DNA from: a virus
Taxonomy: Duplodnaviria > Caudoviricetes
Length of the DNA stretch: 37,169 nt
Reading direction: 5' to 3' (one strand)
Virus record (IMG/VR): IMGVR_UViG_3300037408_000121
Location: 1-37,169 of that record
Part shown: positions 1,576 through 30,553 of the stretch, one piece after another
Position numbering within the stretch: position 1 is the first letter of the stretch
Layout: each line of letters begins with the position of its first letter
Notes under the pieces: generated by a model
Told to the model about the DNA's origin: nothing
What the model saw: the letters and a program-made list of their open reading frames with translations, nothing else
The model's database searches: none
Position numbers and translations under genes: made by a program

Positions 1576-1904
1576 GTGACCCGACGTTCTTTGACGCCTT
1601 CGCCAACTTCCAGACGCTCGTCGCCGACCTGCTGCTCAAGAAGGCCGTCGAGAAGGGCTACTCGGGTGGCGGAAAGGCTGGCGGGCGCAAGCTCATCGAC
1701 TTCGTCGCCGAGGAGATCGCGGACGGGGATGGTCACGCGCTCGGCGAGATCGTCTACAAAGCCCGGCGCTACAAGAACAAGCGCAATCCTGAAGACCTCG
1801 TGAAGGTGGCTGCGTGGGCGTTCCTGGCTTGGGACCGTAACGAGCGCCGTGCTACGCTCGCTGCGGAGGAGGCGGAGGAGGAGGATGCGGCGCAGCGACC
1901 TTGA
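1572..1904 (+). CDS. Hypothetical helical protein, possibly MazG/DUF3310-like nucleotide-associated
   Basis: ATGA overlap; pattern GEIVYKARRY.NK.NPEDLVKVAAW; family call is tentative. Confidence 0.55.
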   Translation: MSDPTFFDAFANFQTLVADLLLKKAVEKGYSGGGKAGGRKLIDFVAEEIADGDGHALGEIVYKARRYKNKRNPEDLVKVAAWAFLAWDRNERRATLAAEEAEEEDAAQRP

Positions 1905-6993: not shown

Positions 6994-8158
6994 GGCGCGG
7001 TTCATCGGAGACCGGGATATCAGTACCGGGCTCCTCGTCGTCATCCCTCCTCGCCCGGAGGCCCACTTCAACCCGAACCACGCTGTCGGCTATCAACGAC
7101 ACTTCAACCCCTACCATGACGACAGGGGCAGGTTCGCGCCGAAGGCTGGCGGTGCGGGAGGCGCGGCCCCGATCATGGCGGAGCCGACCGTCCCACCCGC
7201 CGTCGGTCCTCCGTACTCCCCGGACCCCACGGAGGACGCCGATGGGGACGGCGTGACCGACCGCGCCGTCGTCGGTGTAGCTGCCAACGAGGTCCCACCA
7301 CCACCGGCCCACGTACCGCGCCTGCCGAACCTCACTGCGGACGAGCGCGCCGTCGAGTCGTCCTTCGCCGACAAGTACGAGGCCGACCCGGACGGCATGG
7401 CGAAGCAGTACCTAGACGACGTGAAGAGCGGTCGCGCGAACGCCGACGGGACCAACATCTTCGGCACGGACGACACGAAGTACCTCGCGGGGTTTGGCGG
7501 CGACAAGGACAAGGCCGCCCAGTACAACACGGCCATCCATCAGACGGCGAACGCGATAGCAAAGCGGGCCTTCGTGATGCGGCTGGACGAGCTGAAGGAC
7601 GCTCCAGAGGAGCAGCGGACGGTCCTAGTGACGGCGGGCGGCTGCGCGGCTGGCAAGGGCTACGCGCTCGGCAAGGTGCGCGAGACGCAGTCGATGGCGG
7701 CGAAGGTCGGAGCCGTGTGGGACTCGGCTGGCGAGCAGAATGGGACCGAGAACCCCTGGATTCTCGCCGAGTGCGCCAAGCGCAACATCAGGGTCGCCTT
7801 CGTCTACGTCCACGCGGACCCGGCCTCGGCCTACAAGCGGGCCATCAGCAGGGCGAACGAGAAGGGGCGCATGATCGACGCTCGCGTCTTCGCGGACTCC
7901 TACGCCATCGGCGGCCGGAACTTCCACCAGTTCATGCGCCGCAACGCGCAGAACCCGCTGGCGAGCTTCCACGTTATCGACGCCGAGCGCCCGGCCCCGG
8001 CGAGGGTCGCAACGCTCCCGCGCCGGGCCTACACGATGCGCTCCAGGCCGCTGTGGAAGAAGGCGCTCGACACCACGAGCGCCATGCAGGGGCAACTGAA
8101 GCCGTCCGTGATTCGCGGCGCGGTCGCTGGCACGCGCATCTGGGGCTCCAATGGTTGA
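6980..8158 (+). CDS. Tagged zeta-toxin-like P-loop kinase
   Basis: ATG 6980 with GGAGG/GGTGG upstream; Walker A-like VLVTAGGCAAGKG (7637-7660); lid motif RAISRANEKGRMI. Confidence 0.75.
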   Translation: MRLAEARFIGDRDISTGLLVVIPPRPEAHFNPNHAVGYQRHFNPYHDDRGRFAPKAGGAGGAAPIMAEPTVPPAVGPPYSPDPTEDADGDGVTDRAVVGVAANEVPPPPAHVPRLPNLTADERAVESSFADKYEADPDGMAKQYLDDVKSGRANADGTNIFGTDDTKYLAGFGGDKDKAAQYNTAIHQTANAIAKRAFVMRLDELKDAPEEQRTVLVTAGGCAAGKGYALGKVRETQSMAAKVGAVWDSAGEQNGTENPWILAECAKRNIRVAFVYVHADPASAYKRAISRANEKGRMIDARVFADSYAIGGRNFHQFMRRNAQNPLASFHVIDAERPAPARVATLPRRAYTMRSRPLWKKALDTTSAMQGQLKPSVIRGAVAGTRIWGSNG

Positions 8159-9002
8159 TATCAAGCAGCTCGGGGAAGAGATAGCCGAGGGCATGGCTGC
8201 GGCCATGCGCGACGGCGACCCGAAGGAGTGGGACGACCGCCAGTCGGAACACCAGGCCAGGCTCGCGGCAGAACACGAGGACCCGACGCTGCCGCCAGCG
8301 CCAGCCCTGAACGCTGACGGCTCGCTGCGCCGTGGCTACGACCGGCTCTACACCGAGGTTCGGGAGCGCCTTTTCAACCCCTACCATGACGAGCGCGGTC
8401 GGTTCACGGGCAAGACGGGCGGCGGCTACATGGCCGTCCGTGGCGGCACTTTTTACGAGACGGACGAGGGCGATATGTGGGGTGGCCGACCCATCACGAG
8501 GGGGCGAGAAAAGCAGCAGGCGAACGTGCGGCGGGCCGTCAAGGGCGCGCTCGCCAAGCTCAAGGCGCGTGGCGTTGACGTTGGCGAGGTGAACATCAAC
8601 TACACGTCGTGGGGGCCGAAAGGCCCGGTGGCCTCTGGCGCTGTCGGCAGCGGAGGCCCAGGCAAGGTCGGCAGAATCAGAATCAACATGGCGAACCCCT
8701 GTTGGGGCAATCCGAAGAAGTACGAGGCGGCCCAGGCCAGGGCGAAAATCTGGTCCTCCGACGCGGGAACCGCCGCCATCATCCACGAGGTCGGCCACAC
8801 CCTGCACCGCGCATCGCACAGGGTGATTAGGGCACGCGTCGACATGGCCGTGGCGAGCAAGGTCAGTTCCTATGCCTGCTCTTCACAGGGCGAGTTCGTG
8901 GCCGAGACGTTCGCTGGACTGGTCGCTGGCAAGCGATACCCGAACGAAGTGTTGGGCCTCTACCGACAGCTCGGCGGCCCGCCCGTTGGAGGAAGACGAT
9001 GA
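8151..9002 (+). CDS. Unknown N-domain plus tagged zincin metallopeptidase
   Basis: Tag at 8376; IIHEVGH (His at 8784)...VSSYA...EFVAETF; paralogous to the zincin in 1885..5067. Confidence 0.8.
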   Translation: MVDIKQLGEEIAEGMAAAMRDGDPKEWDDRQSEHQARLAAEHEDPTLPPAPALNADGSLRRGYDRLYTEVRERLFNPYHDERGRFTGKTGGGYMAVRGGTFYETDEGDMWGGRPITRGREKQQANVRRAVKGALAKLKARGVDVGEVNINYTSWGPKGPVASGAVGSGGPGKVGRIRINMANPCWGNPKKYEAAQARAKIWSSDAGTAAIIHEVGHTLHRASHRVIRARVDMAVASKVSSYACSSQGEFVAETFAGLVAGKRYPNEVLGLYRQLGGPPVGGRR

Positions 9003-9621: not shown

Positions 9622-11460
9622 GTGAACAAGAGACAGCAGCAGGCGTTCTCCTTCATCGAACAACACGCCTCGGCCACCATGGTCGAGGCCGAACCCGCCG
9701 CAGCCTACGAGCAGTTCCAAGCCAGCGTCTCCTACACCGCGAACCCGACCGAGGGATTGGTGTCGGGGCTGGCGAGCGTCTTCGACTCGACGGCATACGG
9801 CGCGAAGGGTCCCACCCGCTTCCGGCGCGGGGCCTTCAACGAGAGCCTGTCGCGCAACGGCGGCAAGTTCCCCTTCCTCTGGCAGCACGATGCCTCTAGG
9901 CCCATCGGCGTCGTCACCTCGATGGCCGAGACGAGCGAGGGCCTGTCCTTCACCGCCCGGATCTCCAAGACCACGCTCGGAAACGACGTGCGCGAGCTGC
10001 TGAAGGACGGGGCGATCACCGGGGTCTCCATCGGCTTCGACGCGGTCCCCAACTCCGTCACCTACGAGAAGCACGGCAACGAGCAGGTGCGCTTCGTCGG
10101 CGCGGCGAACCTGCACGAGCTGTCGGTCGTGACCTTCCCCGCCGACAAGAAGGCCCGCGTGCTGACGGTCCACAAGGCGGGCCAGCCTGACGAGACGGTC
10201 GCCTCCATGCTCCACGAGAGCTTCGACGAGGAGCAGCGCGGCTACCTGTCCGCCATGCTGAACGCCCTGCTCGACCCCTCCGCCACGGATGGCGAGGAGC
10301 TGGCGGGTCGCATGTTCTCCGAGACGAACCTGACCCGGATGAAGGACGCCCTCGCCGCGCTGGTCGAGCTGGTCTCTCGGGCCGATCCTGCTCACGTCGC
10401 TGGCGTAGCTAGCGCGATCCAGGTGCCGAAGGACCTCAAGTTCTACGGCGAAGGGCAGGCCGAGGCCGACGAGGAGCGCGAAGCCGCGTCCAAGGCCGTG
10501 CAGCAGGCCGTTCAGGAGACCATGAGCCTCCTGATCGCCGCCGAGGTCGAGGCGCAGGCGCGCGGGCTGGATGTCAAGCCATCGTTTGAGACCCTCGCTG
10601 CTTCGGCTGTCGTCGAAACGCATGCCGACGACGACGAAGAGGACGACGACGACCCAAAAGCTGACGCCGCAGACGACGAAGAGACCTGCCCGGACTGCGG
10701 CAAGCCGATGGACGAGTGCGAGTGCGACGAGGACGAGGACGAAGAGGACGAGGACGAGGACGGTGGCGAGGGGCACATGAACCCCTACCACGACAAGGGC
10801 AGCGGCCGTTTCACCACGAAGGGCGGCGGTGGCGGCGGGACGATCACTGTTGTTCCTGCCGCCAAGCTCGGTGCCGGTCGGGAGGCCGTTCTCACGAAGG
10901 CCGGGTTCAAGAAGGACGCGAAGGGCAACTACGTCGCCGCCGACAATGACAAGGCCCAGTACGCGGCGACCGTCGCCACTCAGGGGACCCTGCACGACAT
11001 CAAGATCAACCCAGGCAAAGCGGCGGGCGGCAGCGCCCCACCGGTCGTGGGGTCTTCCTCTGGACCATCGTGGGCCAAGCGACCGCTGTACAGCAGGTAC
11101 ACCGAGGCCGGGAACCCGCATCCGGATTCTGTTAGCACGGAGATCGGAAGCCTCAAGAGCTGGCACACCTTCGCTGGAGGGACGAGTGCGGCGGCCGGAA
11201 AGCACTCGTATCAATACCCGCTGACGAATCGCCATGGCGAGCACGTCGGCGACTACCACATCAGCCCGTTCACCACTAAGACCGGACGACACGCGGGATA
11301 CTCGCTCAAGTTCACGGACAAGGAAGCCCGTCTCGGCAAGGGGCTGTGGCACGACGTCGGCACGTTCCGCTCTCCGCAAAAGGCGGCGAAGGCCGCGCTT
11401 TCTCACGCGGATTCGAACGGCGCAAAGTGGAACTCTCCGCCCTATAACCGATTCTCCTGA
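9622..11460 (+). CDS. HK97-family prohead protease (peptidase S78) with helical/acidic extension and a C-terminal tagged module
   Basis: GTG 9622 after GAGG; LWQHD..RPIG, GVSIGF and LHELSVVTFPA catalytic motifs; Asp/Glu tract 10627-10765; tag at 10780. Confidence 0.9.
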   Translation: MNKRQQQAFSFIEQHASATMVEAEPAAAYEQFQASVSYTANPTEGLVSGLASVFDSTAYGAKGPTRFRRGAFNESLSRNGGKFPFLWQHDASRPIGVVTSMAETSEGLSFTARISKTTLGNDVRELLKDGAITGVSIGFDAVPNSVTYEKHGNEQVRFVGAANLHELSVVTFPADKKARVLTVHKAGQPDETVASMLHESFDEEQRGYLSAMLNALLDPSATDGEELAGRMFSETNLTRMKDALAALVELVSRADPAHVAGVASAIQVPKDLKFYGEGQAEADEEREAASKAVQQAVQETMSLLIAAEVEAQARGLDVKPSFETLAASAVVETHADDDEEDDDDPKADAADDEETCPDCGKPMDECECDEDEDEEDEDEDGGEGHMNPYHDKGSGRFTTKGGGGGGTITVVPAAKLGAGREAVLTKAGFKKDAKGNYVAADNDKAQYAATVATQGTLHDIKINPGKAAGGSAPPVVGSSSGPSWAKRPLYSRYTEAGNPHPDSVSTEIGSLKSWHTFAGGTSAAAGKHSYQYPLTNRHGEHVGDYHISPFTTKTGRHAGYSLKFTDKEARLGKGLWHDVGTFRSPQKAAKAALSHADSNGAKWNSPPYNRFS

Positions 11461-12836
11461 TGAGCGATCTCCTCTCCGCCGTCCGCGAGCGCCTGATGAA
11501 CCCCTACCATGACTCGAAGTCCGGCAAGTTCACCACGAAGGGCGGCGGGATGGGAGGGGCGGTTCCTTCTTTGGGAGCGTACCGCGACGCGATCTACAGG
11601 GCGCGGACGGGCCAGCTCAACAAGGCGCGGGCTGCCGCTTCCGACCGGCTCGCTTTTCCGGGCGGCATGGATGCGTCCGAGCTGAGCAAGGGACACGGAG
11701 ACTACAACCCGCCATACGCGGACGCTGAGGCCCCCGGCGTCGAGTCCAGAAACTCAGGCTACGGCTTCTACGGGACGGTTCGCAACGCCGAGCGCGGCGG
11801 AGCGCCGCAGGCGACCGGGGGAACGGAGCGCAGCAAGTCGGCCGACCAGAAGTTCGCTGCAGCCCGAAAGATGGTGCAGGACCAGTACGGCACCTCCGGC
11901 GCTGACGCCCGCGACTTCCTCGACAGCCAGGCCGGACGCCACATCGCCGAGTACGTGCTGGAGAGTCCAGCCGCGAAGCGCAGCGTGGTGTCGACGCTGA
12001 AAGAGAAGTGGGTCGCCAAGGCCGTGAAGAGCCACGTTGCCACGTCCGCCTCCTATCGCACCAAGGCGACGCGCGGCCAGCACGCCGTCGACGCCGCCAG
12101 CGAGAACCTCAACGCCATGGTCTCGGTCGAGGTGGTCGAAGAGGTCTGCCCGTCCTGTGCGGAGCTGATGCGGAAGCGGGGCTGGACGCACCTCTCGGCG
12201 CTCGCGCTGATCGAGGCGCTGTCCGAGTCCGAGGTCGAGACCGAGCAGCACGCCGGGGGCATCCCCGCGAAGCTCTGCTCTCGCTTTGCTGGTCTACAGC
12301 ACCCGTTCACGGCTTGCATGGCGTGGGCGCAGGGGAAGGGTCTCGGGGAAGGGTTCTGCGCGGCGCTCGTGAAGAAGTGCACCGGCCACTGGCCGGGGCA
12401 GGCCAAGGGCAAGAAGGCCGAAGGCCACATGAACCCGTACCACGACAAAGGAACGGGCAAGTTCACATCGAAGGGTGGGGGCGCAGGCAGCGCAGCGCCC
12501 GCCTCGCCCTCTGGCCCCGGAGAGAAAGTCAAGATCAAGGCGGCCGACGGCGGGACGATCTCGTACAACGACCATCCCGCCACCGCTCGCTTTGCAAAGG
12601 CACTCGCGGCTGGAATCGACTCGCCAGAGTTCACGTCGAAGTACCAGCACTACAGTTCGGGCGGGGCATCGGTCGATACGGTCCTCGGCCATGGCCGGAT
12701 GCAGCGACAGTCGCTCTACGAACCGAAGGCGCTGTCGAAGGACGTTTTTCACGTCACCACTCAGGTCGGCGGCGGCGGCCCGAAGAAGACGTGGATTCGT
12801 AGGTCTACCAGTGACGAGATGCGTTTTCACGAGTAG
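11460..12836 (+). CDS. Head-associated polyprotein with two tags and a central Cys-rich domain
   Basis: TGATG overlap; tags at 11499 and 12432; CPSC and C..FTACM..GFCAAL..CTGHWPG; lies between protease and capsid genes. Confidence 0.75.
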   Translation: MSDLLSAVRERLMNPYHDSKSGKFTTKGGGMGGAVPSLGAYRDAIYRARTGQLNKARAAASDRLAFPGGMDASELSKGHGDYNPPYADAEAPGVESRNSGYGFYGTVRNAERGGAPQATGGTERSKSADQKFAAARKMVQDQYGTSGADARDFLDSQAGRHIAEYVLESPAAKRSVVSTLKEKWVAKAVKSHVATSASYRTKATRGQHAVDAASENLNAMVSVEVVEEVCPSCAELMRKRGWTHLSALALIEALSESEVETEQHAGGIPAKLCSRFAGLQHPFTACMAWAQGKGLGEGFCAALVKKCTGHWPGQAKGKKAEGHMNPYHDKGTGKFTSKGGGAGSAAPASPSGPGEKVKIKAADGGTISYNDHPATARFAKALAAGIDSPEFTSKYQHYSSGGASVDTVLGHGRMQRQSLYEPKALSKDVFHVTTQVGGGGPKKTWIRRSTSDEMRFHE

Positions 12837-18879: not shown

Positions 18880-19166
18880 AGGCGCAGCCGTGGGTGCTGG
18901 CGGCCCGGCCCGAGCAGTTCGAGGAGCCGGTCTGCCAGCGCCTCGGTCTTGCCCCGGAGGTCTACTGGAACACGACGCCAGCGGACCTCTGCGTGATGCT
19001 GAGGGCCGAGCGTCGCAGGACGAACGTCGAGATTCGTAGGCTAGCGATGGCTGTCTCGTACATCACCGCCCCGCACGTCGACAAGACGCACCGCTCTGCG
19101 GTCTCGGCGAAGAACCTCGTGTTTTCCTTCGCTGACTACGACCCTGACCCGGAGGACGACCAGTGA
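18834..19166 (+). CDS. Tail assembly chaperone extension (T-like), probably reached by -1 frameshift
   Basis: The -1 frame is open from 18834 and overlaps the upstream gene; LGL.P..YW..TP.DL motif; no clear RBS for GTG 18894. Confidence 0.6.
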   Translation, partial: RRGRGQPPSSRPQRLEAQPWVLAARPEQFEEPVCQRLGLAPEVYWNTTPADLCVMLRAERRRTNVEIRRLAMAVSYITAPHVDKTHRSAVSAKNLVFSFADYDPDPEDDQ

Positions 19167-22100
19167 CCATCGAGAAGCTGCTCGTCGAGCTTGGGCTGGA
19201 CCCGACCGACTTCAAGCGTGGCGCGAACGAGGCCCGGCGCGACATGGAGGGGCTGAACGAGATGCTCAGCTCCTTCGGGATGGTGGGCGTCGGCCTTACC
19301 GCAGCCACGGCAGGGCTGGCGGCCATCGCGCGGGAGGCCGTCAACGCGGCTGGCTCGCTGGAGCAGACGAAGATCGGCTTCTCGACCATGCTCGGCTCGG
19401 CCGAGGAAGCCAACAAGTTCCTCAAGGAGCTGGAGGACTTCGCCGCGCGGACGCCGTTCCAGTTCAATGAGCTGGTCACCGGAGCGAAGCGGCTGATGGC
19501 GATGGGCTTCGCGGCTCAGGAAGTGCGCCCGATGCTGGAGGCCGTTGGAGACGCGGTCGCCGCTCTCGGCGGCAGCGGCGAGATGATCCAGCGCGTCACC
19601 CTGGCGCTCGGCCAGATGAGAGCGAAGGGCAAGGTCAGCGCCGAGGAGATGAGGCAGCTCGCCGAGGCTGGCATCCCGGCGTGGCAGATGCTCGCCGACA
19701 CCATCGGCACCTCGATCCCGCAGGCGATGAAGATGGCAGAGAGAGGCACGGTCAAAGCAGACCAGGCCATCGCCGGGATCATCGAGGGCATGAACAAGCG
19801 GTTCGGCGGCCTGATGGAGATGCAGTCGCAGACGCTCATGGGTCGCTTCTCGACCCTGAAGGACGAGCTGGAGTTCGCGCTGCGCGACATGGGCTCGGCG
19901 CTGCTGCCGTTCGCCGGACAGATGCTGGAGTTCGCCACCCTGTCCGTCAAGGGCCTCAAGATGCTGGTGGAGGGGTTCAACGCGCTGCCAGGCCCGGTGA
20001 AGAACATCATCATCCTCTTCGGCGGCGTCGCTGCGTCCATCGGCCCTGCGCTGATCGCCGTGACCGGCTTCATCAAGTCGCTGATGATGTTCCAGACGGC
20101 GCTCGCCACGGTGAACGGGGCGCTGGTCGCTCACAGAGCGGCCACGCTTGCGACCATCGACCCGCTGATGACCGCTGGCGGGGCAGCGACAACGGCGGCG
20201 GGCGGGTTCTCGGCGCTCCGGCTGGCAATCCTCGGTGCGGCAACGGCCTTCGGAGCCATCATTGTCGCCGCCGCCCTCTGGTACGAGAACAAGAAGAAGA
20301 AGGAGCTAGAGGACGCCGAGTTCGCCATGCGGATGCAGAGCCGCGTCGCGGCCGAGCACCTCAAGAACCTCGACGAGATCAAGAAGCAGTCCGAGGCGTC
20401 GCGGAAGGGGCAGACGCGCACGCTGATGGACCAGATCGACGAGGAGATCGCGGCCTATAAGAAGCTCTCGGCTGGCGGCTTCGACGCGGCGAAGAAGGCG
20501 GAGGAGGCCAAGCTCATCAAGCAGGCTGCCGACCTAATGGGCGTGGAGGTGACGGCGATACGCAACGTCACCCAGGCGCGCGAGATCCTCGCCGGGAAGT
20601 CGCGCTACGACGACCTCAAGAAGGAGCGCGAGGAGCACGAGAAGCTGGTCAAGGCGTTCCGCGAGAACGCGATGGAGGCCGGGAAAAACGCCGAGGAGAC
20701 GAAGAAGATCGGCGTCGCGCTGGAAGCGGTCGGCAACTACCTCAAGATGTCGGACTCGGGCCTGCAACAGTTCACGGCGACGCTTCGGTCCTATGGCACA
20801 GAGGGCGCAGCGGCAGCCAGTCAGGTACAGGACGCCTGGGAGAGCGCCAACGAGGTCCGCTTGCTGGTGAGCCGAAACGTCGGCGGAACGCTTCTCGCTC
20901 CGATGGACACCTCGGCTGGTCGGGAAGAGGCGGCGGCAATGCAGAAGGCCCTCGACCTCGTGAAGCAGCACAACGCGGCACTCATGGATCAGGACAGGCT
21001 TCGAGGGGCCATTCGCAAGCTCTACGAAGGCAACGTCATCGACGAGGCGCTGTACCGCGAGTTGATCGGGCTGAACAAGGTAAGCGAGGGAACGGACAAG
21101 ACCAAGGAGGCGACGGAGAAGTGGGTGGATTCCCTGTCCGACGCTCTTCAGGCGGCGGCGTCCCTCAAGACCATCTTCGGCAACACGTTTGGGAACATCG
21201 TCGCTCAGCTCGGGACGATGGCGAGCGGCTTCTCCAAGCTGTTCGGCAAAGGAGGGCTGCTCAGTCAGGGGTTCTCTGGACTCTTCGGGAAGAAGGACGC
21301 CGAGGGCAAGCTGCTCGGCGGGTTCGACTTCAAGTCCATCGTCGGCGGACTGGCTTCGGCTATCCCCGCCATCGGTGCGCTTGCTGGTCCGGTGCTTGGC
21401 GCGATCTCCTCCTGGTTCGAGGGCCGCAAGCTCAAGAAGATCGGCAAGGAGGCCGGTGCGGTGCTCGGCGAGTCCGTCTCCAAGGAGACCGCCAAGGCCA
21501 TCAAGGAGACCTCGAAGGAACTTGGCGTGTCGATCAAGGAAGCCGCGCTGCTGAACCTCGACAAGGTGATGTCCGAGTCCAAGCGCCAGATGTCCGCCTT
21601 CGTCCCGCAGGTGATGGGTCTGCTCGACATCATCAAGAAGGGCGGTCCAGGCGCGGCGAAGGCGCTGGAGCAGGTCGGTCAGGCGTTCGGCAAGATCGCA
21701 GACGAAGCCAAGCGAACCGGCGTCGTCGGCTCCAAGGCCGTCACCGACATCCTCAAGGCGGCGCGGAAGATGGGCGGCGCGGCCTACACCGAGGAGATGA
21801 AGGCGTACACCGAGGAGAAGCTGAACATCGCCGTCGAGGGCCTCAAGAAGTTCGTCACCGGGATCTCGGCGCTGGACGGCGAGTTCGCGCGGATGGGCAC
21901 CAACTCGGCAACGATCTTCATGGCGGCGTTCGGTGCGCTGGTCAAGGAGAAGGGGTGGGTCGAGGCGGTCGACGCTCTCGGCGAGACCTTCGATGCGCTG
22001 AAGGAGAAGTTCAAGAGCGTCTTTGGGGAGGACACGGCAGCCGTCGACGCCATCCTCGCCCCGTTCGAGAAGATGCGTGCGTACCTCGACAACGAGGTGC

Positions 22101-22843
22101 TGCGCGGGGCCATCGACGCGGCGACCGGGCTTCAGCAGATCATGGTCGGGCTGGCTGACGCGGGCTACCTAGACGCGGCTGCGTTCACGGCGATGCAGCA
22201 GACGGCCTACGACCTGTTCCTCCACATGACCGAGGGCGGCATGGACACTGCCTCGGCTCTCCTTACGCTGGCCCCGACGATTTCGGCAGCCGTCAGCGCC
22301 GCCGAGCAGTTCGGCGTCCCGCTCGACGCGGACATGCAAAAGCTCAAGGAGATGGCCGAGCAGAACGGCATCACCTTCGAGACCAGCCCGATGATGCGGA
22401 TGGTGAACGCGCTGGAGGCTATCGCCAAGGTCCTCGGAGCAGAGCTTCCGAGCGCAGCGGCGTCGGCGTCTGCCGCGCTCGACAACGTGGCCCGAGACCG
22501 TTCGTTCAAGATCCGGTACAGGTACGAGTCCGAAGGCCCCGTTCCTCCTGGCGACCCTACCGACCGCAACGGCGACCCTGGATACGCGGCTGGCGGCGTC
22601 GCCTCCGGCCCGGAGAGCGGCTACTGGGCGCTGCTGCACGGCACGGAGGCCGTGGTGCCGGTCGACAAGCTCGACGCCTTCATCAAGAAGGTCTCGGGTG
22701 GCGAGGGCGGAGAGGGCGGCGGCGGGCAGACCATCGTTGTCAACGTCACGCTCCCTGGCGGCGAGGTGCTGAAGTACGTGGAGAAGGCGACGAAGGCCGG
22801 GATGGTTCGCGTCCACCCGAACGCACTGAAGGGACCCTTCTAG
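19163..22843 (+). CDS. Tape measure protein
   Basis: 1226 aa, Ala/Gly-rich helical; tape-measure motif FAARTPF..ALGQM.AKGKV.AEEMRQLAEAGIP; C-terminal YAAGG..LHG.EAVVP. Confidence 0.95.
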   Translation: MTIEKLLVELGLDPTDFKRGANEARRDMEGLNEMLSSFGMVGVGLTAATAGLAAIAREAVNAAGSLEQTKIGFSTMLGSAEEANKFLKELEDFAARTPFQFNELVTGAKRLMAMGFAAQEVRPMLEAVGDAVAALGGSGEMIQRVTLALGQMRAKGKVSAEEMRQLAEAGIPAWQMLADTIGTSIPQAMKMAERGTVKADQAIAGIIEGMNKRFGGLMEMQSQTLMGRFSTLKDELEFALRDMGSALLPFAGQMLEFATLSVKGLKMLVEGFNALPGPVKNIIILFGGVAASIGPALIAVTGFIKSLMMFQTALATVNGALVAHRAATLATIDPLMTAGGAATTAAGGFSALRLAILGAATAFGAIIVAAALWYENKKKKELEDAEFAMRMQSRVAAEHLKNLDEIKKQSEASRKGQTRTLMDQIDEEIAAYKKLSAGGFDAAKKAEEAKLIKQAADLMGVEVTAIRNVTQAREILAGKSRYDDLKKEREEHEKLVKAFRENAMEAGKNAEETKKIGVALEAVGNYLKMSDSGLQQFTATLRSYGTEGAAAASQVQDAWESANEVRLLVSRNVGGTLLAPMDTSAGREEAAAMQKALDLVKQHNAALMDQDRLRGAIRKLYEGNVIDEALYRELIGLNKVSEGTDKTKEATEKWVDSLSDALQAAASLKTIFGNTFGNIVAQLGTMASGFSKLFGKGGLLSQGFSGLFGKKDAEGKLLGGFDFKSIVGGLASAIPAIGALAGPVLGAISSWFEGRKLKKIGKEAGAVLGESVSKETAKAIKETSKELGVSIKEAALLNLDKVMSESKRQMSAFVPQVMGLLDIIKKGGPGAAKALEQVGQAFGKIADEAKRTGVVGSKAVTDILKAARKMGGAAYTEEMKAYTEEKLNIAVEGLKKFVTGISALDGEFARMGTNSATIFMAAFGALVKEKGWVEAVDALGETFDALKEKFKSVFGEDTAAVDAILAPFEKMRAYLDNEVLRGAIDAATGLQQIMVGLADAGYLDAAAFTAMQQTAYDLFLHMTEGGMDTASALLTLAPTISAAVSAAEQFGVPLDADMQKLKEMAEQNGITFETSPMMRMVNALEAIAKVLGAELPSAAASASAALDNVARDRSFKIRYRYESEGPVPPGDPTDRNGDPGYAAGGVASGPESGYWALLHGTEAVVPVDKLDAFIKKVSGGEGGEGGGGQTIVVNVTLPGGEVLKYVEKATKAGMVRVHPNALKGPF

Positions 22844-22844
22844 C

Positions 22845-23978
22845 ATGGCAAGTGTCACCCCGCGTTTCCTCTGGCAGAACTTCCTTCACCTCACCAACAC
22901 GGCGGTCACCGTGTCGAGCGAGGACACCAGCTTCCCGAAGCGATGGCTGCTCGACCCGCTCAAGACGATGCGCTGGCGCTCGAAGCTCGGCTGGACCGTT
23001 GTGGCGGGCTTCAACGACAAGCTGGACTTCGACGAGGGCGGCTCCAATCGCGTCGCTACGCTCACGGCAGGGACGTACACGACCGGGGCGGCCTACGCAA
23101 CGATGCTCCAGACGGCGATCAACGCGGCTGCGGTCTCGAACACCTACACCGTCACCTACTCGGCGACGACGTTCAAGTTCACCATCGCTCGCGCCACGGG
23201 CAGCACGGCCGTCTCGCTGGAGTGGAGCACGGGCGCGAACGCCGGAACCTCGTGCGGGCGCGACATCGGCTTCATCGTCTCGGCCGACGACACCGGGGCC
23301 ACGACCTACACCTCTGACTACGCCTGCTACCAGTCGAGGCAGTACGTCAAGGCGGACCTCGGCTCAGCCATGACCGTGAAGGCGCTCGGCCTCGTCGGAA
23401 TGCAGACGCTCACCACGAACGGCCTCGTCCGGCTCCAAGGCAACGCGACCGACGCATGGACGAGTCCTTCCTACGACCAGAGCTTCGGCCCATCGGCTCA
23501 GGCGGACGACGTGATCGCGCACTGGCCTTCGACGTCGCAGACCTACCGCTACTGGCGCATCATGCTGGACGACCCGTACCTGTCCAGCGGCTACCAGCAG
23601 GTCGGCCTTGCGTACCTCGGGAGCTACCTGGAACCGACGCGAGCCCCGCAGTTCGGCGGCGTGACGGAGCAGCACCAGCCGCTCGCCGTCATCCAGCAGG
23701 GCGATAGCGGCGGCATCTTCACGGACAACAAGAGCCCGGCTCGAACCTTCAGCCTTACCTTTGTCATACTCCCCGACTCCGACCGCCTGCTGATCCAGGC
23801 CATGCAGAAGAGCATCGGTGCGAAGCCGATCTTCTTCGCGCTCGACCCGCAGAACGCACCGACCAACATCCTCTACGGAGCGGTCGTCGAGTACGGCGAG
23901 TTCGTGCACATGGCTGGCGGCGGAGCAACGACGGGCTACTGGTCCTGGCCTTGCCGGATTCTTGAGAGCCTGATGTGA
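22845..23978 (+). CDS. Distal tail-like protein with inserted domain
   Basis: Directly follows the tape measure gene; Thr/Ser/Gly-rich; YRYWRI motif. Confidence 0.7.
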   Translation: MASVTPRFLWQNFLHLTNTAVTVSSEDTSFPKRWLLDPLKTMRWRSKLGWTVVAGFNDKLDFDEGGSNRVATLTAGTYTTGAAYATMLQTAINAAAVSNTYTVTYSATTFKFTIARATGSTAVSLEWSTGANAGTSCGRDIGFIVSADDTGATTYTSDYACYQSRQYVKADLGSAMTVKALGLVGMQTLTTNGLVRLQGNATDAWTSPSYDQSFGPSAQADDVIAHWPSTSQTYRYWRIMLDDPYLSSGYQQVGLAYLGSYLEPTRAPQFGGVTEQHQPLAVIQQGDSGGIFTDNKSPARTFSLTFVILPDSDRLLIQAMQKSIGAKPIFFALDPQNAPTNILYGAVVEYGEFVHMAGGGATTGYWSWPCRILESLM

Positions 23979-26900
23979 GCGACCTCGGCCTTCAGTCCGG
24001 GCTGCCGACCTATGAGCAGCTCTGCGAGGCGTCGCATGGGCAGCGCAGGAGTCACTTCGTCCTGCGCCCGTCCGTCGCCCTCACGGACTGGAGCGTCCAC
24101 TCCGGCAACTGCTATGTGTCGGAGCTAGATAGGCAGTACCGTGGCCTGCGCCGCGACGTGGTCGGCGTCAAGGTGCTGGACGAGGCCCCGCTCACTCGCG
24201 CCGAGACGCTAGCGGCCTGCATCAGCACGGCCAACACCTTCTACTACGATCCCGACGAGGAGTTCGCCTACCCGCTCTTCGTATGGGATTCCTCCTACTG
24301 GGACATCGGCGTGCTCGGAGGCACCGACCCCGACGACTCTCATTACTGGGACCAGTTCACGCGCGTCTACGTCAACCTCGGCGGCACTGACCCCGAGACG
24401 ACGAGCGTGCTGTGCGAGTTGGGTTTCTACATCGGGCAGGAAGGGCTCGTGCAGCCGTCGCTCGGGGAGGATCTGCTCTCCATCGGGTCGTTCGAGACGC
24501 TGACCGGCTGGACGACGGCGGCGACAGCGCCCGACACCATCGCGCTCGACACGCCGCTCGCGCCATCGGGCAGCTACGCCGTGAAGCTGACGGCGGCGGG
24601 TTCGACCGGCGATAGCCTGCTCGCCTACAAGGTCTTGTCGTCTTCGTTCGTCGTTGGAAGGCGCTACCGGATCGCCGGGCACTACGAGACAGGAGCCGAC
24701 AACGCGAACGGGCTCTCGGCGCAGTTCGCCGTCTACAAGTCGCCCGACTACATCCAATCCAACGGCCGCGACCACTCCTCGACGGCAGCGTATCCGGCGC
24801 TGGCGAACACCGGGGGAGTGACGCGACGCTTCACGTTCGACTTCATCGCGTGGGACACGGAGCTTGGTCTCTATCTCTACGCGGGCAAGACCGGGGCCTC
24901 GTCCTCGGGCTACGTCAAGTTCGATAACGTGACCATCCGCCGCATCTGGCGCTACGACACCTACGAGGCGCGGATTGCGCGAGACGACGTGCCATCGTCG
25001 CAGCAGTCCTCGCCCGGCATCTTCTTCTCGGGCAAGTCGGTCGGCGTCGGCGGGCTGAGCTTCCGCAACGCGGACGGGGCCTACGACCTCGCGCTCGGCC
25101 AGTTGACGTGGATCGGGCACACGGTCGAGCACCACATCGGCGGCTCGGTCCCCGGAGTCGGCACCGTGGACCGCGAGGAGTGGGATCAGCGATTCACCGG
25201 AATCATCCAGAACGTGACGTTCACGGACGAAGAGGTTGAGTTCGCTCTGGACGACGCCCGCACGCGCTTCCACAAGGACCTGCCGACCAACTTCCTGAGC
25301 GCCGAGGACGCGAACATCGAGTCGCAGTCGCGCGGCAAGCCGGAGCCGCTCTTCTTCGGCGGCAAGGAGAACATCAGACCCATCCGCATCGGGTACGACG
25401 CCACCTATTCGAAGTACCCGCTCTGCCTGGTCGCGGACTGCGCCGATGCCCCGAACGGCATCTACGCCATCGACGGCGTGTGGGCCTACGAAGGCGTGGA
25501 CACGGCGACCGTCGTGGACACGGCGGCCCGTCTGACGCTGGCCGTTGTGTCTTCCGTCACCCCAACGCTTCCGCTGTTCAAGCCGCGCGTCGCCATGACG
25601 GAGACTTATCCCTCGTCCTACCAGACGACGTTGACCAAGGCGGCGTCGGCCTCGTGGACCGACAACGTGGCCGTCTCGACAGGCGTGCTTCACGGCGATG
25701 GCTACGTCGAGTTCGTGACGGGCAGCGCGACGGTGCAGCTCTGCCTCGGGCTGGCGACGCTCGACAAGCAGAAGCTCGACAAGGCCGACATCGACTACGG
25801 AGCCAACCTGAACGGCAGCGGCCAGCTCCAGGCCCGCATCCTCGACACGCTGACCGGCAGCACCTACGCGACCGGGACCACGACGAAGATCCGCGTGGAG
25901 CGCGTAGGCTCGACGGTCTACCTCAAGTACGCCGAGTCGCCCTACTCGACGTGGACGACGCTGCACACCTACGCCGCCACGACCTCGGCCCCGCTGTGCG
26001 TGAAGGTCTCCATCTACTCCTCGTCGGGCGTCGCTTCGTCCATCACGGTCCTCGGCTTCGGGCAGGTCAGCGCCGACCTCTCTACGGGGACCTTCACCGT
26101 GCGGGAGGACGTGGAGCCGGTTCGCGTCACGCTCGACAACCAGTTCCTCAACTTCGACGTGGGCGGCTCCGAACTCACGGCCACCATCCCGACCGGGCTG
26201 TACACGCGCAGGCAGCTCTCGTGCGAGATCGCCCATCAGATGAAGGCGCAGACCGGGGCATCGGCGCTGCACTGCTACTATTCGAACTCGACCAACTTCT
26301 TCACCATCTCGGCCCCGAGCGGCACGCTGAACCTCCGCATCACCACCGGCAGCAACAAGGACGCGAGCGCATGGGGTCTGCTCGGCTTCACGCGCGACGC
26401 GAACGACACGGGCGCGCTGACCTACAGCAGCAACGCTGCCGTGTGGGACGTGACGCAGATCGACAGCAAGATCATCCTTCGCGTCACCGGACGCGGGTAC
26501 AAGGACGACGCTCTCGGCACCTACACGGGGACGGCAGACGCGCTTATCCAGAAGGGGACGGACATCGCTCGCGCCATCATTCGGCGCTGGCTGAAGCGCC
26601 CGGCGTCGGAGATCGACGAGACCACCTTCACGGCATCGCGGACCACGGCCCCGGAGTCGCTGGCGATCTATCTGCAAGCGCAGGAGTCCTCGCAGCGCAT
26701 CTTCGAGCGGCTGGAGAGCAGCAACGCCGCCAACATCATCATCGGCGGCGACGGCAAGGTCTACTACATCGTCAACGCCTACGACAACGAGGAGGTGCCG
26801 CTTACGTCGCGCATCGAGGAGCGCGACTACCTGGCAAAGCCCGTCTTCGAGCGCAAGATCGAAGAGGTCTTCCGCACGGTCATCGTCAAGTACAACCAGC

Positions 26901-27871
26901 GGCCCGACAACGGGAACTGGGAGTTCACGACCGCGACCGACCCGACCGTCGCCAACAAGTACCAGCGGATCGAGACGAAGGAGATCGAGACCTACGTTCG
27001 CTTCCTCGCCCCGGCGACCACGCTGGCGGGCCGGATGCTCGTGCTCGCGCAGCGGCCTCCCGTTCGCGCCCGCGTGGTCACTCACTCCAAGCTGTTCCGT
27101 CGTCGGATCGGCGACATCGTCTCGGTCACGCGCAAGCGGGCGCTGGCCCAGGACGGCACCTTCGTAAACAAGCCGTTTCGCATCATCGCCATCGAGCCGA
27201 ACGCCATCGAGGGCCGCGTGCAGGCAGACCTCGTGGAAGCTGAGGCGCTGGTCGCTGGCGTCAACTGCATCTCCACATGCCAGGAGCTGTGCCAGCTCTC
27301 CACGCAGAGCGAGTGCTCCGTGGTGTCGCAGACGTCCTGCGTCGTCGTATGCCAGAGCAACTGCATGGTGTCGTGCCAGAACTGCGGAGAGAGCGGGTTC
27401 TGCCAGACATCCTGCGAGCTAGTCTGTCAGGCATGCGGGCAGACCGGCTTCTGCCAGACCTGCGGTCAGGTCGGCTTCTGCGAGGTCTGCGGTCAGGCGG
27501 CGGGGCCATGTCAGACTGTCTGCGAGCTTGGATCGCAGACCTGTTCCGAGGGCTGTGAGGTTTCCTGCCAGCTCTGCGGAGAGTCCGGCTTCTGTCAGAC
27601 ATCCTGTGAGGTGGCGTGCCAGGACTGCGGGCAGGCGGCGAACTGTCAGACGTGCGCTCAAGGCGTCGGATGTGAGACGTGCGGTGAAGCGGCGGGACCG
27701 TGTCAGACTTGTGCTCAGGGTGTCGGGTGCGAGAGTTGCGGTGAAGCGGGAGCCTTCTGTGAGGTGTGCGGCCAGTCGAGCGGCCCATGCCAGACGACCT
27801 GTCAGCTAACAGGGTGCGAGACGGCGTGTCAATTTTCCTGTCAGACGGAGGTCCAGACAGACATACCATGA
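23975..27871 (+). CDS. Large tail-tip/hub protein with carbohydrate-binding-like domains and a C-terminal Cys-repeat domain
   Basis: GTGA overlap; 1298 aa; FRN.DG..F.G.I, P.FFG and IGDIVSVT hub-like motifs; GSFE..GW...FDNV CBM-like segment; the last ~200 aa contain 42 Cys. Confidence 0.8.
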   Translation: MSDLGLQSGLPTYEQLCEASHGQRRSHFVLRPSVALTDWSVHSGNCYVSELDRQYRGLRRDVVGVKVLDEAPLTRAETLAACISTANTFYYDPDEEFAYPLFVWDSSYWDIGVLGGTDPDDSHYWDQFTRVYVNLGGTDPETTSVLCELGFYIGQEGLVQPSLGEDLLSIGSFETLTGWTTAATAPDTIALDTPLAPSGSYAVKLTAAGSTGDSLLAYKVLSSSFVVGRRYRIAGHYETGADNANGLSAQFAVYKSPDYIQSNGRDHSSTAAYPALANTGGVTRRFTFDFIAWDTELGLYLYAGKTGASSSGYVKFDNVTIRRIWRYDTYEARIARDDVPSSQQSSPGIFFSGKSVGVGGLSFRNADGAYDLALGQLTWIGHTVEHHIGGSVPGVGTVDREEWDQRFTGIIQNVTFTDEEVEFALDDARTRFHKDLPTNFLSAEDANIESQSRGKPEPLFFGGKENIRPIRIGYDATYSKYPLCLVADCADAPNGIYAIDGVWAYEGVDTATVVDTAARLTLAVVSSVTPTLPLFKPRVAMTETYPSSYQTTLTKAASASWTDNVAVSTGVLHGDGYVEFVTGSATVQLCLGLATLDKQKLDKADIDYGANLNGSGQLQARILDTLTGSTYATGTTTKIRVERVGSTVYLKYAESPYSTWTTLHTYAATTSAPLCVKVSIYSSSGVASSITVLGFGQVSADLSTGTFTVREDVEPVRVTLDNQFLNFDVGGSELTATIPTGLYTRRQLSCEIAHQMKAQTGASALHCYYSNSTNFFTISAPSGTLNLRITTGSNKDASAWGLLGFTRDANDTGALTYSSNAAVWDVTQIDSKIILRVTGRGYKDDALGTYTGTADALIQKGTDIARAIIRRWLKRPASEIDETTFTASRTTAPESLAIYLQAQESSQRIFERLESSNAANIIIGGDGKVYYIVNAYDNEEVPLTSRIEERDYLAKPVFERKIEEVFRTVIVKYNQRPDNGNWEFTTATDPTVANKYQRIETKEIETYVRFLAPATTLAGRMLVLAQRPPVRARVVTHSKLFRRRIGDIVSVTRKRALAQDGTFVNKPFRIIAIEPNAIEGRVQADLVEAEALVAGVNCISTCQELCQLSTQSECSVVSQTSCVVVCQSNCMVSCQNCGESGFCQTSCELVCQACGQTGFCQTCGQVGFCEVCGQAAGPCQTVCELGSQTCSEGCEVSCQLCGESGFCQTSCEVACQDCGQAANCQTCAQGVGCETCGEAAGPCQTCAQGVGCESCGEAGAFCEVCGQSSGPCQTTCQLTGCETACQFSCQTEVQTDIP
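27266..27868 (+). repeat. Cys-rich peptide repeats (CxxxC / CxxC; units such as CGESGFCQTSCE, CQTCAQGVGCE.CGEA)
   Basis: 42 Cys in ~200 aa; duplicated units at 27383/27575 and 27644/27701 differ mostly at synonymous sites. Confidence 0.9.
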
Positions 27872-29313
27872 AGCCCACCGGCCAGCGACACATCTGGCTG
27901 TGCGTCACGCGGACTTGCAATCTCGCGTGCACGTACTGCTATCAGGGCAGCCACGTTCACGTCCCCGACCGGCTCACGAAACACATGAGCGTCGAGGTGG
28001 CGCAGAAGGCTATCGACTGGTCGCACGAGTGGGCGCAAGGCCCGCTGACGGTCTGCTACTACGGGGGCGAGCCGCTGCTGCGATTCGAACTCCTCAAGCT
28101 GATCCCCGAGTGGCGCGAGGCCCGCAAGCAGCGCGGCCTTCCCTCGCTGGCCGTCTCCGTGACGACCAACGGGACGCTGCTGACGCCCGAGGTCCGCTCC
28201 TTCATGGATAAGAACGGCGTCGGGATGCTGCTCTCGCTCGATGGGCCTAAGCGGTTCCACGACAAGAGCCGCCCGTACCACTCCGGCGTCAAGTCCTCGT
28301 GGGACCAGATCGACCCACTGAGCGTCCTCAAGTGGAGGCCACGGCTGGAGATCGCATGGCAGTTGGACCCCAGGAACTTCGACCCTGCCAGCGGCGCAGA
28401 GCAGATCACCCCCGACGTGGTCCGCGAGATGATGGAGATGGGGTTCCGCAACATCAACTTCAACGTGAACTGGCTCGACCGCTGGTCGGAGGTCGCCCGC
28501 TGGAACGTGCAGTGGCTCTTCAAGAGCCTCACGCTCTGGATGCTGGAGCGACAGGCGGCGATGGAGCGCAACGACCCGAAGGCCCACGAGATCGGCCTCG
28601 GCTGCAACTGGTTCGGGAAGCTGAGGAAGGCCCTGGAGACCGACGTGAAGATGGTCCAGCCCTGCGGCACGGGCCTGATGATGGTCGGCGTCTCCCCCGA
28701 GGGCTGGCTCTATCCGTCGCAGGAGATGGTCTACACGGTGGAGAAGCCCGACCGCGCGCCGGGCACGAGCGAGTTCTACCGCATCGGAGACCTGAACAAG
28801 ACCCCGGTACTGGACGTGGTCAGGCTGGCCGAGGTCTCGACCATCAGGACCGAGCAGATGCGCCCGCCCGCGCCGTTCAAGTGCGAGACCTGCGTCGCCA
28901 AGAGCGCCAGCATCGGCGGCTGTCACTGCCGCTACGTCGGGCAGGACGGAATGGACCCGAGCAACCGCTTCGACGTGACGCCCGGCTACTGCGAGTCGAC
29001 GGTCGCCATCCATGCCGGGATGCTCATGGGGGCCTCAGTCGCCCGCTGGATCAGGCCGCAGGGCTGGAGCGGGAAGCCCTACACGGGCTCTATGGAGGGC
29101 TTCGGGGCCTACAAGGGGGGAGGGCCTACCCCGGCCGCGAAACCCCTGCCTGCGGCCAGCCAGGGGCCTTCTCCGGCCGGTCTGGAGCTTGCCGCCGTGC
29201 CCGGTAATGGCAAAACGCAGCCCGCTCGCGTTGAGGGCGTCGAGGCGCTCGTTCGCAAGGTCATCCGCGAGGAGCTGAGCCGCTCGCCGCTCGTGCGGAT
29301 AGAGGAGGTCTGA
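27868..29313 (+). CDS. Radical SAM enzyme with SPASM-like domain (peptide/protein maturase-type)
   Basis: ATGA overlap; CNLACTYC, GGEPLL, TTNGTLL, SLDG; C-terminal CG.G..SPEG.LYPS..CETC..GGC.C..YC. Confidence 0.9.
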   Translation: MKPTGQRHIWLCVTRTCNLACTYCYQGSHVHVPDRLTKHMSVEVAQKAIDWSHEWAQGPLTVCYYGGEPLLRFELLKLIPEWREARKQRGLPSLAVSVTTNGTLLTPEVRSFMDKNGVGMLLSLDGPKRFHDKSRPYHSGVKSSWDQIDPLSVLKWRPRLEIAWQLDPRNFDPASGAEQITPDVVREMMEMGFRNINFNVNWLDRWSEVARWNVQWLFKSLTLWMLERQAAMERNDPKAHEIGLGCNWFGKLRKALETDVKMVQPCGTGLMMVGVSPEGWLYPSQEMVYTVEKPDRAPGTSEFYRIGDLNKTPVLDVVRLAEVSTIRTEQMRPPAPFKCETCVAKSASIGGCHCRYVGQDGMDPSNRFDVTPGYCESTVAIHAGMLMGASVARWIRPQGWSGKPYTGSMEGFGAYKGGGPTPAAKPLPAASQGPSPAGLELAAVPGNGKTQPARVEGVEALVRKVIREELSRSPLVRIEEV

Positions 29314-29314
29314 C

Positions 29315-30553
29315 ATGGCGCTCGACCTGACCAAGCCGGTAGCGAACAGCAAGGGCGCGAGCGCCGAGATGCGGGCCAACTTCACGGCCCTCGCTCGCGC
29401 GCTCGGCCACGTCAGCCTCGTCCGCGACGGCGGTTTCCGCGTGTGGGCCGAGAGCGACAGCGCCGCACCCTCGCACTACACGACCGTAGGCACTGTGCCG
29501 ACCATCGCGCGGGTCGGAACGATCACGGGCACGCTCGACGCCAGCACGGACACGGACACCGCCTACGAGAGCGGAATCGAGAGCACAGCCAAGGTCGGCG
29601 ACATCTTCCGCAATACCACTCGCAGCAAGACGCGCCTCGTCACGGCTGTCGGCACGAACTACGTGGACCTTGACTCGGCCATCACGTCTCAGGCCAGCGG
29701 CGACACCTTCTACTTGATTCCGTGTCTCTATCCACACAACGCCCTCAAGCTGACGCGCGGCGCTAGCGCGGGAGGCGTCAAGCAGATCGTCCTCAACGCG
29801 ACCGATGCGCTGGAGTGGCTCGGCCGGTTCCGTGGCGGCTACGTTTCCATCGGCTGCGCTGTTCATGCGCTCGTCGGATCGAACGCGCGGCTCGCCATCT
29901 ACGACGGCGTTGACACGACCTACAGCGACTACCATACGAACGTGGCCGGGTGGGAATGGCTCGAAGTCGTCCATCCGTTCGACGATGACTGGAACACGCT
30001 GGAGTTCCACATGCTCGTCGAGGCGTCGTCGAGCGCCGCGTGCTTCTCTGGCCTGACGGGTCTGCTCGGCGACGCTGCACCGCAGGGGTACATCCCCGGT
30101 CGCGTGCAGCCGGGACTCATCCAGTTCACGTATCCCGGCACGCCAGTGGTGGACAGCGGCTCGCCGAACGGCTACCAGCGAGTCACCCTCGGCTGGCCCG
30201 CGTGGATCTCGGGTGTGAGCGCCTCGATGTCGGACCCGACCGACTCGACGGCGATGACCGTCGATCTCTACAAGTACGAGAGCGCGGCGTGGGCGTCGAT
30301 CCTGTCCTCGGCCATGAGCATCGGCACGTCCGGTGTCCCCTCGTCGCATCCGGCCTTCAGCAGCTACAACAAGCAGTGCCTCGACGGGCGCATCGCGCTC
30401 GACACGCCAGCGGCAGCGTACTCCGAGATCGGCAGCAAGATCACCGGCGCGGGCAGCGGCACGCTCTCGGACCTGCGCGTGCTGATCCACACGCTGCAAT
30501 ACTTCGGGGCACTCGACGGCCATCAGCGCCTCGGCAGCTTCGGGAGACAGTAG
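29315..30553 (+). CDS. Putative tail/virion protein
   Basis: GGAGG RBS; N-terminal SAEMRANF..L motif; beta-rich; YH...GWEWL.V CBM-like segment. Confidence 0.65.
   Translation: MALDLTKPVANSKGASAEMRANFTALARALGHVSLVRDGGFRVWAESDSAAPSHYTTVGTVPTIARVGTITGTLDASTDTDTAYESGIESTAKVGDIFRNTTRSKTRLVTAVGTNYVDLDSAITSQASGDTFYLIPCLYPHNALKLTRGASAGGVKQIVLNATDALEWLGRFRGGYVSIGCAVHALVGSNARLAIYDGVDTTYSDYHTNVAGWEWLEVVHPFDDDWNTLEFHMLVEASSSAACFSGLTGLLGDAAPQGYIPGRVQPGLIQFTYPGTPVVDSGSPNGYQRVTLGWPAWISGVSASMSDPTDSTAMTVDLYKYESAAWASILSSAMSIGTSGVPSSHPAFSSYNKQCLDGRIALDTPAAAYSEIGSKITGAGSGTLSDLRVLIHTLQYFGALDGHQRLGSFGRQ

Follow-up and report, generated by a model that had tools for sequence, protein, structure and literature searches.

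The DNA analysed here is virus record IMGVR_UViG_3300037408_000121 (37,169 bases, completeness estimate 46%), referred to below as the window. Scans with Pfam and PHROG profiles recognized a siphophage head-tail operon in it, with genes for a prohead protease, capsid, connectors, major tail and tape measure proteins. The tail part of this operon contains a 1298-amino acid open reading frame (ORF) for a predicted tail-tip hub protein, which ends in a repeat dominated by Cys and Gln/Glu and is followed by a gene for a radical S-adenosylmethionine (SAM)/SPASM enzyme. The features concerned are:

23975-27871, + strand: hub ORF including the repeat, 1298 amino acids
23975..27265, + strand: baseplate hub or tail-tip body, residues 1-1097, carrier of the repeat (AlphaFold2 model; Foldseek)
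27236..27265, + strand: linker from the hub to the first Cys, DD-x-V-T-V-A-G/S-x-x-C (family conservation)
27266..27868, + strand: C(Q/E)xx repeat domain, residues 1098-1298, 201 amino acids with 42 Cys, predicted substrate
27868..29313, + strand: radical SAM/SPASM enzyme, 481 amino acids, its start overlapping the hub stop
27916..27939, + strand: CxxxCxYC SAM-cluster motif, C17, C21 and C24 of the enzyme
28663..28992, + strand: rearranged SPASM region of the enzyme (alignment columns; alignment with CteB)

Residue counts bear out the original prediction, made from this sequence alone, of a 42-Cys C-terminal domain devoid of Lys, Arg, His, Trp and Tyr. The 201 residues include 28 Gln, 24 Gly, 19 Ser, 18 Thr, 17 Glu, 16 Val and 13 Ala besides the 42 Cys; residues 1-1097 contain only 10 Cys. 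Spacings between Cys are chiefly 4, 3, 6 and 7, with two of 8. The sequence ATGA at 27868-27871, also noted originally, does join the hub stop to the enzyme's ATG. Since the underlying DNA holds just two short 27-base tandem arrays (2.7 and 2.2 copies), the repeat is one at the protein level, and a DNA tandem repeat was ruled out as the origin of the Cys pattern. The GC content of third codon positions is 0.75 under the repeat as against 0.92 in the gene body.

The fusion does not result from misassembly, an outcome that the original prediction had allowed for. One contig of sequencing run X1, which may be the source sample, spans 23500-30000 with zero differences. In a second sample, X4, a contig bridges the hub-repeat junction (26722-27467, zero differences); the repeat-enzyme junction is not bridged there. 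Relatives at 35-55% identity keep both the fusion and the gene order. Short contigs on the enzyme gene were found in RNA runs X5 and X6, in small shares and without a silent-stretch control, and do not by themselves show expression.

Pfam, PHROGs and NCBIfam hold no named family for the hub or the repeat, an ESM Atlas search with the repeat gave no usable match, and the hub core found no match in a cultured-phage collection. The label PF27846 is precomputed on 11 of 24 hub proteins. In an AlphaFold2 model of residues 320-1298, built on a 76-row alignment, most of the hub part has a predicted local distance difference test score (pLDDT) above 90, and the repeat falls below 50. The best solved structures retrieved by Foldseek with the hub model were the tail-tip hubs of T5, DT57C, lambda, T1, Sf11, Chi and JBD30 (best E = 4.9e-14, T5 tip; TM score about 0.3 across the whole query). 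With a predicted hub-domain fold and a place after the tape measure and distal tail genes, the 1298-residue protein is, as modelled, a siphophage baseplate-hub or tail-tip protein, and the original assignment of the carrier to the tail tip holds. Its likeness to T5 pb3 and lambda gpJ lies in the predicted fold and in the position two genes past the tape measure gene. The two hubs differ in how they continue: that of gpJ runs on into a central fibre and receptor-binding domain (PMC10721106), whereas the window hub continues into the Cys-Gln/Glu repeat. From the layout of gpJ, the repeat likely lies at the distal end of the tail.

Joint distribution of the repeat and the enzyme

Loci found through the enzyme had the hub-repeat fusion directly upstream in seven of seven cases. 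Patterns drawn from the hub body retrieved 21 loci: 14 had both the repeat and the enzyme, 5 had neither, 2 were cut by contig ends, and none had one alone. Six further loci, three of them with distant hubs, also had neither. With duplicates merged, both parts occur in 16 distinct loci (window included, and L024 with its frameshifted enzyme gene) and neither in 11, none having one part alone; L027 was counted with only 767 bases of downstream sequence. The records of L013, L014 and L015, which are fragments, gave no PF04055 match. The original prediction had reckoned with a Cys domain commonly occurring without the enzyme; this was never seen where DNA was available.

In six of the 11 loci with neither part the hub ends at most 9 residues from the expected repeat start, and the conserved downstream gene comes next. 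A quick tree of 39 rows was built and the trait scored on the 24 rows with known context, among which presence or absence of the module changes four times. L014, L018 and L037 are module-free inside module-bearing clades (SH-like approximate likelihood ratio test values of 92, 96 and 99), and three lineages appear to have lost both repeat and enzyme. A search with the hub core returned 347 clusters; among the best 150, the protein finishes in the Cys repeat in 34 and at the hub itself in 103; a different short tail follows in 9, and 4 are ambiguous. The Cys repeat is thus an optional add-on of the hub family, which, given the relatives that do without it, does not need the module. Together, repeat and dedicated radical SAM enzyme form a conserved, optional two-part module of the tail-tip hub.

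The linker preceding the first Cys is conserved (D in 51, T in 48, V in 47 and A in 53 of 57 rows, not fully de-duplicated) and is a candidate docking site for the enzyme.

One Vicinamibacteria (Acidobacteriota) genome carries two related prophage tail loci, L028 (G001:C2) and L038 (G001:C1), one module-bearing and the other module-free. Two distant hubs, P0135 and P0274, terminate in another kind of Cys repeat: its spacing is 3 (runs of CxxC), and polar residues occupy +4 and +7. Locus searches did not yield the gene context of the distant Cys-bearing hubs P0135, P0274, P0215, P0253 and P0254: L029 was cut, L030 was an inserted-domain match only, P0253 gave nothing and P0215 led to an unrelated myophage.

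Three neighbouring genes frame the module:

19163..22843, + strand: tape measure protein (PF20155, 7.7e-32; PHROG tape measure families)
22845..23978, + strand: gene at the distal-tail (Dit) position, its Dit identity taken from position (phrog_8610, unknown function)
29315..30553, + strand: downstream tail gene, right border of the module, conserved with or without it

The Dit-position gene lies upstream of the hub in module-bearing and module-free loci alike. It shares a homologous inserted domain with the hub (about 26100-26450; profile E about 1e-7), and profile matches place this domain in many other loci too. ESM Atlas look-alikes of the downstream gene are unnamed viral clusters with scores below 0.9, and serve as a lead only. 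Elsewhere in the window, the long ORFs of 1072, 641, 402, 283 and 458 amino acids (1849-9002 and 11460-12836) matched no named family, and none of the 30 window ORFs was named as terminase or portal in the Pfam and PHROG scans.

An independent scan of viral contigs for five C(Q/E)xx units, covering 13 of 64 parts, gave at least 124 loci. Among the matches listed with flanks (81), 69 were 12-base DNA tandem repeats, none of which had a radical SAM match to the enzyme profile. Nine of the 12 non-tandem flanked loci listed had a radical SAM gene within 5 kb, eight recognized by profile and L117 by NCBIfam; one of the nine is the L002 contig. Of the other three, one was cut by a contig end and two were apparent off-frame readings. 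All eight enzymes scanned from these non-tandem loci scored best with the PapB model, below its cut-off. Among the matches listed, the repeat is carried, for example, by genes that follow tape measure genes (L066, L117), by one that follows baseplate genes and has a Hoc-like match (L061), and by short ORFs standing alone (L044, L057, L087). The L043 myophage fragment has two tandem baseplate-region genes that end in the repeat, and its sequence stops before the downstream DNA. Also among the matches listed, the ORFs at L071:4926-7142 and L117:1133-2971 contain 151 and 138 Cys, with a radical SAM gene directly or nearly directly next.

The register of Cys and Gln/Glu

Across 52 domains (107-210 amino acids, 16-44 Cys) a spacing of 4 dominates, and Gln/Glu stands at Cys+1 in 87% and at Cys+5 in 84% of cases. 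The residue at Cys+4 is itself Cys in 77%; the acceptor position of a PapB-type CX3D/E motif is thus taken by Cys, and Gln/Glu is found at +5. With most Cys facing Gln/Glu both directly after it and five residues on, the partner can be told from cases where the register is broken. Such cases were collected from 49 hub-family domains, five distant ones being left out. When an in-register Cys is replaced, the Gln/Glu five downstream is kept in only 3 of 31 distinct contexts, as against 29 of 31 for the Gln/Glu directly after it and 9 of 9 for that three before it. For the borders, 48 domains were compared, leaving out the truncated L008 and using corrected starts in two cases. At the first Cys, +1 is Gln/Glu in 2 of 48 and +5 is Gln in all 48; for the last Cys, Gln/Glu occupies +5 in 43 of 48, +2, +3 and +4 in 4, 5 and 4, and +6 in 13. 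Pairing of adjacent Cys and Gln was ruled out by the first-Cys and single-loss results. Pairing of the NxxcB type (Gln-x-x-Cys, acceptor upstream) was likewise rejected, as Gln/Glu with Cys only at +3 amounts to 12 of 197 positions, the background rate.

In the window, 29 of 42 Cys have Gln/Glu at +5 and 41 of 42 have it at +5 or directly after the next Cys; the latter figure for the family is 1753 of 1809. These patterns indicate a link between each Cys and the Gln/Glu five positions further downstream across the 48-49 relatives compared. Such a dependence favours overlapping Cys-to-Gln/Glu thioether rings over disulfide bonds or metal sites. The residues at +5 (Gln 1054, Glu 446, Asn 26, Asp 2) suggest, by the preference for Gln/Glu and the near absence of Asp/Asn, that side-chain length matters. 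The original prediction had left open whether the tip was thioether-stapled or metal-loaded; the first branch appears to fit this grammar better and the second worse.

The radical SAM enzyme

The 481-amino acid ORF matches PF04055 at 1.2e-15 (58.5 bits, cut-off 29.5), and the CxxxCxxC motif is present in the window and in 14 of the 15 other distinct loci, the exception being the frameshifted L024. No match was obtained when viral contigs were scanned with the single enzyme sequence, so that an alignment was needed for detection; in the cultured-phage collection the radical SAM genes that matched were just distant ones, all covering less than 80% of the query. A profile search retrieved 111 proteins at E <= 1e-20 among 7996 candidates. 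Of these, 90 form a clade (E <= 3.6e-54) set off from the next protein at 6.1e-30. The window enzyme and 86 of the 90 members were aligned (87 rows), the four with large insertions being left out.

NCBIfam ranks PapB (NF047865) first for the window enzyme, followed by other thioether-type maturases, all far under their cut-offs. The PapB score is 134.5 against a cut-off of 340; relatives score 114-157, and PapB is the best model for four of four. The CrpC (TIGR04463) and QhpD (TIGR03906) models give 59 of 525 and 114 of 453. Membership of the CXXX-repeat (TIGR04115) or SCIFF (TIGR03974) maturase families, against which the original prediction had suggested checking the enzyme, is not borne out, with 78.4 of 350 and 91.2 of 425 bits. 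The closest solved structure is CteB, by sequence profile (6.7e-39) and by fold (4.9e-18), the fold matching CteB and anSME over about 400 columns. By these comparisons the enzyme is nearest to the CteB/PapB ranthisynthases, yet it passes no family cut-off; the broader claim that it is a thioether-type radical SAM/SPASM enzyme agrees with its likeness to the PapB model and to CteB. No N-terminal RiPP recognition element (RRE; RiPP, peptide synthesized ribosomally and modified post-translationally) was found: the motif starts at residue 17, and 6-45 residues precede it in 55 motif-bearing relatives.

Invariant in all 87 rows are C266, C339, C342, C352, H353, C354, C375 and S284-Q285-E286; position 348 is Ser in 58 rows and Cys in 29. 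In the SPASM region, Ser replaces one canonical Cys in every row and another in 58 of 87 rows, and an extra Cys-His-Cys is invariant. An extra invariant Cys may stand in for the lost SPASM cluster ligand. The six positions in proximity to the catalytic site, taken from PMC10288494, read Y/F-Y-T-S-Q-E in the enzyme and F-F-T-S-H-Q in CteB.

At the C-terminus of the enzyme (29240-29313) a low-complexity linker leads into a helix followed by a short strand of hydrophobic residues. At least 10 of the 90 relatives have a comparable helix-strand end, a possible oligomerisation or docking element. Five clade members (L017:4026-6254, P0009, P0010, P0021 and P0066) carry intein-like insertions with mostly weak LAGLIDADG and intein-splicing matches. 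They fall at two sites, one ahead of the third Cys of CxxxCxxC and the other at the final SPASM Cys. Conserved positions within needed genes are the preferred targets of inteins. In L024, a short frame-breaking insertion (4977-5170) lies beside the intein site and could be recent decay, a mobile-element scar or an assembly error. Since many database copies of the enzyme start past the CxxxCxxC motif and are named sulfatase maturases, the system is hidden from automatic annotation.

Predicted cross-linking, its alternatives and known systems

We think it probable that the enzyme cross-links the repeat from Cys to Gln/Glu and that the resulting chain of thioether rings remains part of the virion in the form of a stiff central fibre. 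A Cys tied one-to-one to a downstream carbonyl-bearing residue is what ranthisynthases read, and from this we infer CX4(Q/E) thioethers. By analogy with PapB, QhpD and CrpC, the radical SAM/SPASM enzyme would abstract a hydrogen beside the side-chain carbonyl and join the Cys sulfur to the gamma carbon of a Gln/Glu usually five residues downstream, with 2 Da lost per ring. Every ring would enclose the next Cys, giving a chain of about 40 overlapping rings per monomer. The enzyme may dock on the linker or the hub in place of an RRE. By hub architecture, three copies per tail would project where lambda gpJ bears its central fibre. Catalysis, bond position, the use of Gln, the docking site and retention on the virion are thus predicted features of the scheme. 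Any role of the tip is a guess: host contact, a penetration aid, or rigidity proof against proteases and redox changes.

Several points weigh against this proposal. Some concern the coupling: the presence-absence pattern comprises two independent contrasts on strongly supported branches (four on all; sign test p = 0.5), the two parts are adjacent, so that a single deletion can remove both, and the L024 enzyme is frameshifted within the CxxxCxxC codons beside an intact repeat. Regarding the register, 16 of the 49 domains supply the 31 contexts, some of which go back to a common ancestor; the single-loss test on 24 other domains goes in the same direction but weakly (1/5 vs 4/5, p = 0.2); and 32 of 48 domains have an even number of Cys (p = 0.03 over related rows), which speaks slightly for disulfides. 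As to the enzyme, its thioether chemistry is proposed from sequence and analogy. The enzyme anSME and the cyclophane synthase ChlB nearly equal CteB in fold score, and substrate recognition finds no explanation in any RRE or N-terminal leader. At the position of the CteB auxiliary-cluster Cys362 all 87 rows have Ser, with an invariant Gln-Glu after it, and proximity positions 5-6 are this Gln-Glu and not His-Gln as in CteB; for both reasons the chemistry may differ. The PapB reaction takes place beside a carboxylate (PMC12373016, PMC9413430), and a literature search aimed at Cys-Gln ranthipeptides gave no report of them.

The differences in the enzyme lend themselves to a reading in which it does modify the repeat, but by another chemistry: sactionines (sulfur bonded to the alpha carbon), attachment to some other residue, or a radical reaction that Gln/Glu would guide and that forms no thioether. 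The missed cut-offs, the rearranged SPASM ligands and the Gln-Glu at proximity positions 5-6 agree with it, and sactionines are the products of GggB and QmpB despite their resemblance to ranthisynthases (PMC10288494). We regard it as rather unlikely, since the strict Gln/Glu with near-zero Asp/Asn suggests the dependence on side-chain length that a side-chain carbon acceptor would show. A tip domain that binds metal or Fe-S, or is bonded by disulfides, with the enzyme in support or acting at a few sites, would account for the CxxC/CxxxC spacing and the even Cys counts, and Fe-S clusters occur in the tail tips of lambda gpL and gp13 of a gene transfer agent (GTA) (PMC10721106). Single Cys losses are nevertheless tolerated and take the +5 Gln/Glu with them, the last Cys retains its +5 Gln/Glu although it has no Cys to pair with, the number of Cys is odd in 16 of 48 domains, and His ligands are absent. 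Radical SAM/SPASM enzymes, moreover, are not known to act as metal loaders, and we consider this origin of the Cys pattern improbable.

It is less probable still that the repeat is a RiPP core which is cross-linked and then cut off, to act as a free peptide in the host or in tail assembly with the hub as mere carrier. The leader-then-core order, the conserved linker at the junction and, among the matches listed, the stand-alone short versions in other phages fit such a scheme. No flanking gene matched a peptidase or transporter family, however (several matched nothing at all), and the same repeat is borne by other tail-module proteins, in the baseplate region of L043 and after the tape measure gene of L066. 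Hub proteins are also low-copy and a poor source of diffusible peptide, and the notion of a RiPP as a short precursor that loses its leader and releases a product does not describe a 1298-residue tail hub. Finally, repeat and enzyme could be merely linked neighbours, the enzyme having another substrate. Adjacency would explain joint deletion, and the few independent contrasts and the L024 frameshift are compatible with this; against it stand zero discordant gene contents in 27 informative distinct loci and the pairing of the same repeat with PapB-like enzymes in unrelated phages, which make it very improbable.

A wider form of the cross-linking proposal is that tailed phages build part of the particle with an RRE-free, leader-free radical SAM enzyme of new auxiliary-cluster layout, and that the ring-stitched repeat is portable across unrelated phages; here we see the balance as even. 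The same even weight goes to its further element, that a new covalent protein polymer forms the central tail spike and has been grafted onto hub, baseplate and fibre proteins. If true, enzymatic radical cross-linking would join the known ways of virus particle construction, at the part that touches the host. The enzyme would then be a processive, RRE-free thioether-stapling catalyst using Gln at about 40 sites per chain, useful for peptide and protein engineering. The +5 grammar predicts the exact residues and the mass loss, and module-free natural relatives offer a control.

Literature on phage or CXXX-repeat radical SAM systems, with subscription papers mostly outside its scope, gave no radical SAM modification of a virion protein, and a cyanophage paper treats its enzyme as an antibiotic gene (PMC12801897). 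Among characterized systems, PapB/PapA (freyrasin) supplies the best NCBIfam model and, like the repeat, has the Cys upstream of the acceptor. PapB joins Cys to the carbon beside the Asp/Glu carboxylate in CX3D/E motifs, tolerates CXnD with n of 0-6 and nested rings (PMC9413430, PMC12373016), and makes in-line and nested rings with Glu accepted at the gamma carbon (PMC9413430). PapA has 6 CX3D/E sites, whereas the repeat has about 40 of the form CX4(Q/E), mostly Gln, on a 1298-residue predicted virion protein without RRE or leader. CteB (PDB 5WGG, 5WHY), the best solved structure by sequence and fold, is alike at proximity positions 1-4; it differs in having an N-terminal RRE region (the match starts at its residue 97) and in Cys362-His363-Gln364, which is Ser-Gln-Glu in the window enzyme.

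The predicted NCBIfam CXXX-repeat system (TIGR04115; targets TIGR04114 and TIGR04117), itself uncharacterised, shares a Cys-every-fourth repeat adjoining a radical SAM gene, but the window enzyme and repeat lie under its cut-offs. The repeat gave no match to TIGR04114 at E 10, and one of five other records reached the 20-bit cut-off of that model. Protein substrates for ranthionine formation have precedent in CrpC/CrpA and QhpD/QhpC: QhpD bonds Cys to Glu and to Asp within a protein, and CrpC of Methanococcus voltae makes ranthionines in a 29-kDa protein whose Cys repeat is C-terminal, as in the hub (PMC13692751). Those are cellular proteins modified by RRE-bearing enzymes, in contrast to the RRE-free window enzyme, and a term search gave no mention of phages in the text of that paper or in any of its three supplements. 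Judged from sequence, the module would work like a protein thioether system of the QhpD/CrpC/PapB type while belonging to none of the named families: a variant of a known chemistry in the new setting of a phage virion protein, with a new +5 grammar.

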